Shown piece by piece: positions 17,356-19,512 of a DNA stretch of 19,512 nt. Position 1 is the first letter of the stretch. The number at the start of each line of letters is the position of its first letter. Under the pieces are notes generated by a model, which worked only from the letters and a program-made list of their open reading frames with translations, ran no database searches and was not told where the DNA came from. The translations under genes were made by a program, and so were the position numbers. The DNA is from a virus (taxonomy: Duplodnaviria > Heunggongvirae > Uroviricota > Caudoviricetes), in the IMG/VR virus record IMGVR_UViG_2617270991_000004. One strand, written 5' to 3'.

Positions 17356-17670
17356 ATGCATAACCATCAACATAATTATGATTTATACCTGCAAGCCATA
17401 AATGAGCGGGTAAAATCGGAATGCCTTTTACTCCTCCCGCAAGAACACGAAGCAGTAAAGGCCATTCAGGCTGAACCGTATGGAGCTCTCACTACTGCAA
17501 CTCTCAGTATTATATCCGGAGCATTAACACCAACCTTGCTCCTTCGCCTGAAAGACAATATAGATGACTGGTTAAATGAAGAATTAAGTTACCTTGATTG
17601 CGAATGGGATAATCATTACGCCAAATCACAAAAAGATCGCCTGTTCAGACAATTATCAGGTAACAGATAA
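17356..17670 (+). CDS. Hypothetical 104-aa protein, convergent with the 330-aa gene (part of the S-R insertion)
   Basis: ATG at 17356 with a GAGGA SD 6 nt upstream; product MHNHQHNYDLYLQAINERVKSECLLLLPQEHEAVK...LSGNR. The track ORF 17104..17670 extends further 5' but that part is antisense to R. AT-rich; no family recognised. Confidence 0.6.
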   Translation: MHNHQHNYDLYLQAINERVKSECLLLLPQEHEAVKAIQAEPYGALTTATLSIISGALTPTLLLRLKDNIDDWLNEELSYLDCEWDNHYAKSQKDRLFRQLSGNR

Positions 17671-17676
17671 CAGTAC

Positions 17677-18669
17677 TTATATCCGCCCTTTGAGATAATT
17701 CAGCCCCGGCTGGAGCCAGCCATCAGGCTCTTTCTTAAAGGGCGGAGTATTGAAATCACGAAGAAGGACCTCCCGCACCGCAGTATCCCTGTCTGCACCA
17801 CTGGCAAGCGCTTCAATCTCAGCAGCTACCTGCAGATATCCCATGCAACGGCCAACGCGCTTCATCAGCCCCTGCTTTTTATTGTTCTTCAGGTAATCAA
17901 TGGCAAATTCAATGAGCTCCTCACTGTGCTGGTGCGATGGAGGTGTTACTTTCCCATTTTCTGAGATGGTTATTTTCCCACCATCACCGGATACAACAAA
18001 GGATGGCCGGTTACACTCCCATTCCAGCTCACTGAAATTATCATTATGAATACTGAAACACTCTGCGAGATTTCTGCTCATCACTTTCCGGCAATAATCG
18101 TAAAACGCCGCAAACTGCTGCTCATCGCGGCGTTTTTTTTCAGGCTGCTGAAAATGCTCTTTCAACAGTGAAGCGCAGTTCAGGCGCGCAGCTAATTCAA
18201 GAATAGTTTCTTTCATTTCATCTGCTGCAAGCACCTCATTTTTTGTTGGGGTGCTTTTTTTCAATTCAGTAACACAGCACTCCAGTTTTTCAATGCGTGA
18301 TTCAATATCATCTTTTTCTGACCGCAGTGTTGACGGCGGCATCTTCAGAGCATCAGTAATTCTTCCCGGTAGCTTTCCTTTGTAGGTTATCAACACATCC
18401 TGCGCCTCTAAAATTATGGGGCGCTTTTCTGGCAACGGTTCATCCCCTTCACATAACCCGGCAGCAATATCCATGAAAAACTGCTTCGCCTGCTTTTTCG
18501 CCTCAGCTTCGTAAAACTCCAGCGTGGCACCTTCAGTACGGTCAAGACTAATCGCCACATTTGGCAACAACAGTGGCGGATACCCACCAATTTCCAGTGC
18601 CACAGTAACAGCTATCTTATCCGGGTAATGATTTATCCCTTTTACAACCAGTTCATATTTTTTATTCAT
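17677..18669 (-). CDS. Hypothetical 330-aa protein inserted between holin and endolysin
   Basis: Long ORF whose ATG lies 3 nt after the holin stop (GAG TAG ACG ATG); the holin 3' end GGGGAGAG acts as SD. AT-rich relative to flanking phage genes. Predicted central coiled coil (DDIESRIEKLECCVTELKK...ILELAARL). No family recognised. Confidence 0.75.
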   Translation of the reverse strand: MNKKYELVVKGINHYPDKIAVTVALEIGGYPPLLLPNVAISLDRTEGATLEFYEAEAKKQAKQFFMDIAAGLCEGDEPLPEKRPIILEAQDVLITYKGKLPGRITDALKMPPSTLRSEKDDIESRIEKLECCVTELKKSTPTKNEVLAADEMKETILELAARLNCASLLKEHFQQPEKKRRDEQQFAAFYDYCRKVMSRNLAECFSIHNDNFSELEWECNRPSFVVSGDGGKITISENGKVTPPSHQHSEELIEFAIDYLKNNKKQGLMKRVGRCMGYLQVAAEIEALASGADRDTAVREVLLRDFNTPPFKKEPDGWLQPGLNYLKGRI

Positions 18670-18672
18670 CGT

Positions 18673-18888
18673 CTACTCTCCCCGAGCCGCCTTACGACGG
18701 TCCTCTCTGATTTTGAAATACAGGTTAGTCAGATATGTCAGCAGCCCAAACAGCAGACTCCCCAGCACGCCTATTGCCGCCCACTGAGACGGGGAAACCC
18801 TGTCCAGCAACTGCAGGAACCAGTAGCCCGTTCCCACCGCTGACGTGGTGTATGACACACCTGTTGTGATTTTTTCCATCTGGTACAT
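18673..18888 (-). CDS. S: Holin, phage 21 S-type pinholin with dual-start motif
   Basis: From ATG 18888 the product is [71 protein letters not shown] (71 aa), matching the recalled S21 C-terminus. M-Y-Q-M gives two starts 3 codons apart. The longer track ORF (to 18993) would run through a terminator hairpin. Confidence 0.9.
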
Positions 18889-18920
18889 ACCCCGTCTCCC
18901 GTTATCCGGAAGCTGACAAC

Positions 18921-18952
18921 AATAAAAAAGCCACCAGTTAAGTACTGATGGC
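18921..18952 (-). terminator. Intrinsic terminator upstream of the holin gene (candidate tR'-like late terminator)
   Basis: Minus-strand RNA has an 8-bp stem GCCAUCAG/CUGGUGGC (one G-U pair), 7-nt loop, then UUUUUUAUU. Lies between the partial upstream ORF and the holin start. Confidence 0.7.
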
Positions 18953-19037
18953 TCTGATAACTCATGCAGGCGTCTCAGACGACCCACTGACACTACCGGT
19001 GAGTTTAACGATACCTTCCATTTGACTGGCTCACTTT

Positions 19038-19512
19038 TTATGATGATGCCGGTGCATTTATCTCCAGCACCAGACTTTCTATCTCAACGCCATACGTTGC
19101 ATTTTTGGTAATATCCGTCAGCGTCAGTGCATTTAGTCCCACTGTCAGACTGTCTTTTATGACCTGGAATGCCGGGCCAGCCACTCCATTCAGTTTCGGA
19201 GTAACCGTGGCACTGCCGGCGGTGAACACCAGCTCCAGCGTCTGCCAGTCGTTACTGTAATTCCCGAACTCGCCCAACTTTGTGTTTCCTGCTTTCTTGT
19301 GATGCATCAGATTCAGTTTGCCGTCTGTGGTCTGGGTGAAGAACGACATCAGGAACGGGTTACCAGTCCCGGTCATCGCCACGACGTCAGGTAACGCTAC
19401 ATCGGTATACAGATAAATTCCCAGACCGAACTGGTTGTTGGTCAGTGCGCCTGACAGTCGAAACTTACAGCTCAGTCTGCCACCCCGTGTCAGCAGGGAG
19501 ACTGCGTCATCC
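19038..19512 (-). CDS. Hypothetical protein, partial (N-terminus beyond right window edge)
   Basis: Minus-strand frame is stop-free from the window edge to the stop at 19038 (at least 158 codons). C-terminal product ...[63 protein letters not shown] has alternating beta-like pattern. Not recognisably Q antiterminator. Confidence 0.5.

Follow-up and report, generated by a model that had tools for sequence, protein, structure and literature searches.

Gene order at the right edge of the window

The phage genes of the window (the whole stretch of 19,512 nucleotides analysed here) lie on the minus strand, and the late operon runs leftward. Starting at the right edge, we identified the end of nanS-p, a spacer, the holin gene S, a YdfR/DUF1327 gene, R and Rz, followed by the terminase, portal, head and tail genes. 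The features considered below are as follows.

19038..19512, minus strand: 3′ end of nanS-p, codons 461-617 and TAA stop (translation, Pfam, PDB, Foldseek, identical genome)
18917..18955, minus strand: predicted intrinsic terminator; stem 18955-18927, core GCCAUCAGU / ACUGGUGGC, loop ACUUA, then UUUUUUAUUGUUG
18896..18912, minus strand: small hairpin CUUCCG-GAUAA-CGGGAG (MFE and centroid folds)
18673..18888, minus strand: S, class II (phage 21-type) holin, 71 aa, first gene of the lysis cassette (Pfam Phage_holin_2_1, E = 9 × 10−33)
17227-16694, minus strand: R
16395-15928, minus strand: Rz

Translation of the minus strand yields 157 sense codons from 19511 to 19041, followed by TAA at 19040-19038, and the remaining two minus-strand frames of this region are full of stops. 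An earlier reading of this DNA from its letters and open reading frames (hereafter, the sequence-only reading) had described a stop-free frame that runs off the window and ends about 150 bp before S; such a frame exists, and the spacer between the nanS-p stop and the start codon of S (18888) measures 149 nt. The same reading referred to 114 visible C-terminal residues. A long C-terminal part is indeed present, but 157 residues are visible, and the figure of 114 covers only those downstream of an internal GTG. S is labelled holin in every related record.

Identification of the reading frame as nanS-p

The 157-residue fragment in the window matches the Pfam family DUF6645 (E = 1.6 × 10−20), which places the ORF well above chance. 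A megablast search with positions 18600-19512 matched 346 phage records, mostly of Stx-converting phages, with Stx2 phage 86 at the top (98.0%); in these records, the ORF is labelled either ‘yjhS: 9-O-acetyl-N-acetylneuraminic acid deacetylase’ or ‘SASA family carbohydrate esterase’. All 19512 nt of the window form a single 100.0% alignment to the genome of E. coli B1-56 (NZ_AP040249.1, positions 2028726-2048237), compared with 95-97% for the runner-up genomes, and this genome can therefore be used for sequence beyond the window. Three quarters of nanS-p lie off the window and were read from this identical public genome; the corresponding locus of NZ_AP040249.1 is denoted L002 below, with window position = 28513 − L002 coordinate. 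The rightward extension that the sequence-only reading had proposed recovers the full ORF, which encodes 617 aa (NZ_AP040249.1 2027347-2029200) and starts ~1.38 kb past the window edge. Pfam assigns three domains to the full-length protein:

Residues 3-50: DUF1737
Residues 66-262: SASA
Residues 467-577: DUF6645, the only domain inside the window

The 617-aa protein has the domain composition of NanS-p (DUF1737, SASA/SGNH esterase and DUF6645). Homology and structure searches matched it to both the NanS/YjhS esterase (residues 59-379, PDB 3PT5, E = 2.3 × 10−121) and the crystallised C-terminal jelly roll of the phi24B NanS-p, vb_24B_21 (residues 421-613, PDB 6YP6, E = 9.2 × 10−31). Within the off-window catalytic domain, SGNH block I (GQSN, residues 71-74) and block IV (RPTH, residues 356-359) are intact, such that homology to NanS/YjhS is accompanied by the GQSN serine and the block IV histidine. 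An AlphaFold single-sequence model of the window fragment, which served solely to check the sequence-based match to 6YP6, is of modest confidence (pLDDT 60) and consists mostly of strands according to DSSP; the best PDB match of this model in a Foldseek search was again 6yp6 (E = 6 × 10−11), followed by concanavalin-type lectin/jelly-roll folds, including the sialic-acid-binding lectin domain of the V. cholerae sialidase. The visible residues had been judged beta-rich from the sequence, in agreement with the predicted model and with the solved homologue, a beta jelly roll. NCBIfam yielded no match, whether with the fragment or with the full protein, which is uninformative. The annotation of NZ_AP040249.1 and its colinearity with 933W place the gene in the late operon, downstream of Q, pR′ and the tRNA genes (the stx site) and upstream of S.

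Taken together, the homology data identify the ORF as the 3′ end of nanS-p, a predicted prophage sialate O-acetylesterase gene, with the visible part comprising most of the C-terminal lectin-like jelly roll. The ORF had previously been regarded as unknown; it is an annotated gene whose close relatives have been biochemically characterised, with structures solved for two of the three domains (PMC8065619, PMC10462455). The suggestion that it could be a cargo gene was right in kind, nanS-p being an accessory gene located between the stx/tRNA site and S. The outcome that the sequence-only reading had named as contrary to its proposal, an ordinary conserved phage gene, is also what we found: copies of the visible part are present in 2080 of the 5426 complete E. 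coli genomes, with as many as 11 in a single genome. Labels of the form ‘DUF6645 domain-containing protein’ had led us to suspect a truncated gene; this was rejected, the copy in E. coli 55989 being full length (1863 nt) and the label a matter of naming only. The presence of nanS-p at the window edge is already known and ordinary, and it carries little weight as a discovery because the gene has been catalogued and characterised and a nearly identical allele is known from Stx2 phage 86 (see below). The main gain is the correct annotation of the right edge of the window.

Comparison with related NanS proteins

We compared the window's protein with those of phage 86 (gp03) and 933W (L0105), domain by domain (amino acid identity):

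DUF1737: 62% vs. phage 86 gp03, 60% vs. 933W L0105
Esterase domain: 83% vs. phage 86 gp03, 71% vs. 933W L0105
C-terminal domain: 95% vs. phage 86 gp03, 37% vs. 933W L0105
Part visible in the window: 98.7% vs. phage 86 gp03, 38.5% vs. 933W L0105

The phage 86 protein (Stx2-86_gp03, YP_794050.1; ‘NanS-p sequence 20’ of Pascal et al. 2023) has the same three-domain architecture, and phage 86 and the window prophage share the RPTH form of block IV, the spacer, the terminator and the downstream S. However, phage 86 is a Shiga-toxin podovirus (Traversvirus) that carries stx2AB upstream, whereas the window prophage is without stx and has a lambda-like structural module. In addition, the DUF1737 domain and linker of gp03 are of the 933W type (62% identity to the window protein over residues 1-55), and the linker is 14 residues longer than that of the window prophage.

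The NanS-p of 933W and that of phi24B (vb_24B_21, gp84) belong to the same family and occupy the same slot between the tRNA/stx site and S, with an esterase domain that is 71% identical to the one analysed here. The C-terminal jelly roll of phi24B (6YP6) is homologous to that of the window protein (E = 9 × 10−31), yet only 37% identical, and the window protein differs from those of phi24B and 933W also in the N-terminal loop variant and in the absence of the SISSP linker. The C-terminal domain of vb_24B_21 is a lectin-like jelly roll, for which a role as carbohydrate-binding module has been proposed (Franke et al. 2020). Of the four aromatics thought to contact carbohydrate, three, Y510, Y515 and Y540, correspond to residues that are still aromatic in the window allele (F488, Y493 and F518), whereas F611 is replaced by V584. 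In 933W, an extra ORF, L0106, separates nanS-p from the hairpin and S, which is not the case in the window.

The chromosomal NanS (YjhS, 3PT5) aligns end to end, over its SGNH/SASA domain, with residues 59-379, and the GQSN serine and the block IV histidine are kept. Unlike the prophage protein, NanS is a single-domain member of the nan regulon, without DUF1737 and without the C-terminal lectin domain, the sole part that lies within the window.

In EDL933 and O104:H4, NanS-p alleles act as Neu5,9Ac2 esterases, allowing lysogens to grow on this sugar and removing O-acetyl groups from mucin glycans (PMC8065619). Mitomycin C raises nanS-p expression by 1-2.4 logs, and the RPTH variant of block IV has been reported for the phage 86 allele (PMC10462455); the window allele has this variant, vs. 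RSSH or RASH in the alleles with tested activity. From these relatives we infer esterase activity of the window's nanS-p allele and glycan binding by its C-terminal domain. The SGNH/SASA domain would remove the 9-O-acetyl group from Neu5,9Ac2 and from mucin sialoglycans, and the lectin-like jelly roll would target the enzyme to its glycan substrate. The protein sequence has no N-terminal hydrophobic signal sequence, and NanS-p would therefore leave the cell on lysis.

Q, the late promoter and the stx site beyond the window edge

In the B1-56 genome, the late control region was located past the edge of the window:

L002 4407-4790: quuD (Q), 127 aa, 78% identical to 933W Q, ~4.2-4.6 kb past the edge (annotation and alignment)
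L002 4979-6061: ompC/nmpC-like porin gene, opposite in strand and located between quuD and pR′, an arrangement shared with K-12 DLP12
L002 6431-6436 and 6453-6458: putative pR′, −35 TTTACG and −10 TATGCT, in register with the annotated hexamers of 933W pR′, ~2.6 kb past the edge
L002 6696-6724: putative tR′ (second terminator), identical to that of 933W, ~2.3 kb past the edge

The gene order is quuD, porin, pR′/qut/tR′, tRNAs, nanS-p and S. With Q and pR′ several kb farther on, the right end of the window falls within the late operon's cargo segment. The porin gene stands between quuD and pR′, so that late transcription would start downstream of the porin and not beside Q. The segment L002 6430-7173 can be aligned (87%) to the part of 933W in which pR′, qut, two terminators, pT and the tRNA genes ileZ-argN-argO are annotated. 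The spacing between pR′ and tR′ agrees with the literature value of 258 nt for the StxS leader of Stx phages. The sequence-only reading had allowed for a pR′ off the window and had advised a search for the promoter and the Q-utilisation site, and both have 933W-like counterparts in this segment. A scan of the coding strand for sigma-70-like consensus matches between the tRNA terminator and the start codon found no promoter of nanS-p's own, a weak negative.

At L002 7173|7176, the sequence joins what are positions 1412|2745 of 933W, ~2.3 kb beyond position 19512; stx2AB (933W positions 1463-2703) is skipped exactly, and neither stxA nor stxB is found between the tRNA genes and nanS-p. Toxin cargo, one of the possibilities raised for this site, is thus rejected: stx is precisely absent and the ORF belongs to an esterase gene. 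In terms of sequence, the prophage is an stx-less counterpart of Stx phages, with an empty toxin site.

The arrangement in the K-12 prophage DLP12 (quuD - nmpC - pR′/tR′ - essD) is similar in that it has the same type of Q allele and an opposite-strand porin gene between Q and the late promoter, and the pR′/qut/first-terminator sequence of DLP12 is nearly identical to that of the B1-56 prophage. By contrast, the DLP12 leader runs directly into essD, with no tRNAs, no nanS-p and no S-proximal hairpin.

Two minor observations concern the same segment. Given the conserved pR′-leader-tR′ sequence (L002 6431-6724), a StxS-like small RNA is probably made from the late leader in B1-56, a non-toxigenic river isolate. 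The first phage tRNA (L002 6887-6958) is called tRNA-Met (CAT) by ARAGORN vs. tRNA-Ile (ileZ, AUA) in the genome annotation and in 933W, as commonly happens with a lysidine-modified CAU anticodon.

A conserved hairpin upstream of S

A terminator scan of the region detected a stem at 18955-18927 with 12 pairs (5 G-C) and a 5-nt loop, followed by TTTATTGTTG. This is the canonical form of an intrinsic terminator, a G+C stem-loop with a U-run directly after it on the transcribed strand. The strong terminator that the sequence-only reading had placed at 18921-18952 corresponds to this element to within a few bases; its span is 18955-18917. Six terminator-like sites were found in 17500-19512, compared to 1.6 ± 1.3 in shuffled sequences, and the MFE and centroid folds of the spacer agree on the 18955-18927 hairpin (about −17 kcal/mol). 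No T-run follows the hairpin on the plus strand, and it would therefore act solely in the sense of the late operon.

The hairpin occurs at the same site upstream of S in 933W and in ~300 phage records, with the match beginning exactly at the hairpin base. It is linked to S rather than to nanS-p, as can be seen from 933W, where it comes after L0106. A literal search of 933W for the window hairpin, allowing up to 3 mismatches, returned nothing; a diverged form with a compensatory pair change, A-U to G-C at the stem base, emerged on alignment. The hairpin is unannotated in the 933W record.

To extend the comparison, viral contigs were fetched by the conserved ribosome-binding-site motif of S (at least 120 contigs), and the upstream sequence was extracted. 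Almost all of the 30 distinct 75-mers obtained fold a hairpin at the same place, with energies of −12 to −21 kcal/mol and a single case of −7.2, and most have a T-rich tail. When 23 distinct 48-nt variants were aligned, 95.2% of the cells could pair, compared with 29-70% in controls with slid partners, and in 5 of the 11 pairs both partners change. In 500 shuffles, neither the observed percentage of paired cells nor the observed covariation score was reached once; this count does not represent a probability because the variants are mutually related. The slid controls and the occurrence of several stem types argue for maintenance of the hairpin structure in evolution. As a conserved, covarying putative terminator upstream of S, the hairpin merits a feature line in the 933W record.

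A second, smaller hairpin lies between this element and S (18912-18896). What is probably the Shine-Dalgarno sequence of S lies in its 3′ arm, shortly before the MYQM dual start. When the window, phage 86 and 933W are aligned, both arms are unchanged, whereas the loop differs. Holin genes with a dual start are known to rely on RNA structure upstream of them, and the small hairpin may be akin to the sdi-type structure of such genes. It more likely concerns the translation of S.

Proposed role in the late operon and alternative explanations

By analogy with the late operons of lambda, 82, 21 and the Stx phages, on which the assignment of termination and read-through is based, the most likely behaviour of the hairpin is to halt polymerase that is not modified and to let the Q-modified enzyme through. 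On induction, QuuD would load onto RNA polymerase at pR′/qut, and the modified enzyme would read through tR′, the terminators flanking the tRNA genes, nanS-p and the 18955-18917 terminator and continue into S-YdfR-R-Rz and then the head and tail genes. As long as the lysogen is quiescent, the hairpin would stop polymerase that is not modified by Q and so keep stray transcription of the cargo segment from the holin gene. The hairpin is distinct from tR′, the off-window terminator that ends the short constitutive pR′ transcript. As a whole, the interpretation of the region as a late cargo esterase gene followed by a hairpin terminator that stops non-Q-modified polymerase is, in our assessment, very probably correct.

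Three other explanations were weighed against this interpretation. According to the sequence-only reading, the ORF might be a divergent Q antiterminator with pR′ off the window. Its location upstream of S, the place of Q in cargo-free phages, is the one point in favour of this proposal; Pfam finds no Q family in either the fragment or the full protein, the esterase and lectin-domain matches (Pfam, PDB) are strong, and the actual quuD is present at L002 4407-4790, with the 933W-like pR′/qut/tR′ at L002 6431-6724. We therefore consider the divergent Q refuted for practical purposes and extremely improbable. The hairpin at 18955-18927, in turn, could be something other than a terminator, namely, an element of RNA stability or processing, or a part of the translational control of S. 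This would agree with its linkage to S, with its position after L0106 in 933W and with the use of upstream RNA structure by dual-start holin genes, and some natural variants have a poor U-run, e.g., CCCCACUUGUUGUUG. However, a run of 5-7 U abuts the stem both in the window and in most variants, as is canonical for a terminator; the small hairpin at the ribosome-binding site is a better candidate for translational control; and the large hairpin is 38 nt upstream of the S start codon. A role other than termination appears unlikely.

The third alternative concerns the same gene with a chiefly structural function: NanS-p would be a virion protein, with DUF1737 docked on capsid hexons, that displays or releases the esterase and lectin domains, and the particle would be active within O-acetylated mucus or against glycans on bacterial surfaces, rather than the gene being a nutrient gift to the lysogen. 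In a cryo-EM and proteomics study, phi24B gp84 (NanS-p) was found to be processed and to decorate the capsid, a T=9 shell whose central hexons carry hexamers of DUF1737 (bioRxiv 10.64898/2026.04.10.717836), and nanS-p is transcribed with the late genes, both of which favour a structural function. In view of this preprint, ‘lysogen nutrition’ may not be the chief role of NanS-p. That said, a structural role is known just for a T=9 podovirus, whereas the head of the window prophage is lambda-like (a gpD-size ORF and a 342-aa capsid gene), and the proposed SISSP cleavage linker is missing from the window's NanS-p. Further evidence comes from the DUF1737 loop (L002 7622-7800; loci L004-L279), which has two main forms, ‘STAGYGAEF’ in 933W and phi24B, containing the Tyr42 capsid ‘tooth’ (bioRxiv 10.64898/2026.04.10.717836), and the shorter ‘ITPYTLMQA’ in the window prophage. 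Among the fetched viral contigs, which are interrelated and in which TerL is a mere proxy for the capsid type, ‘STAGYG’ was present in 9 of 9 loci with a 933W-type TerL and ‘ITPYT’ in 38 of 38 loci with a lambda-type TerL; a third TerL type was mixed, with 11 ‘ITPYT’ and 1 ‘STAGYG’. The loop variant thus follows the packaging module in this sample, and the C-terminal domain is common to both sides of the TerL/DUF1737 divide. The mixed third type and the relatedness of the contigs count against a structural reading of this pattern; the association of loop and TerL is nevertheless a hint that fits capsid docking by DUF1737 beyond phi24B. On balance, a chiefly structural NanS-p seems possible but clearly the less probable reading.

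For the lambda-like siphoviral prophages in particular, we tentatively put forward, with similarly low confidence, that NanS-p may be virion-borne, with an ‘ITPYT’ DUF1737 (in which the anchoring Tyr is kept) matched to the head and a C-terminal lectin freely exchanged between phage types, changing the glycan specificity. If so, a very common E. coli prophage ‘moron’ would be a modular, capsid-displayed tool for mucus and glycans. The modest question that the locus raises is whether DUF1737 docks NanS-p on lambda-type capsids as it does on phi24B.

Other features of the lysis region

Along with the late cargo esterase gene and its hairpin, we noted several features between S and R. An intact ORF of 330 aa (17677-18669, minus strand) has an N-terminal DUF1327/YdfR domain (E = 3 × 10−40) and a full-length match to PHROG 1085 (function unknown); in the identical genome, PGAP calls only the first third of this ORF, as a ‘YdfR family’ pseudogene. 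On the plus strand inside this ORF, there are two terminator-like hairpins with T-runs, at 18116-18132 and 18229-18256. Between the YdfR-like gene and R, a gene of 104 aa (17356-17670, plus strand; PHROG 1853, unknown function) is oriented against the late operon and is also present in Stx2 phage 86 (gp06).
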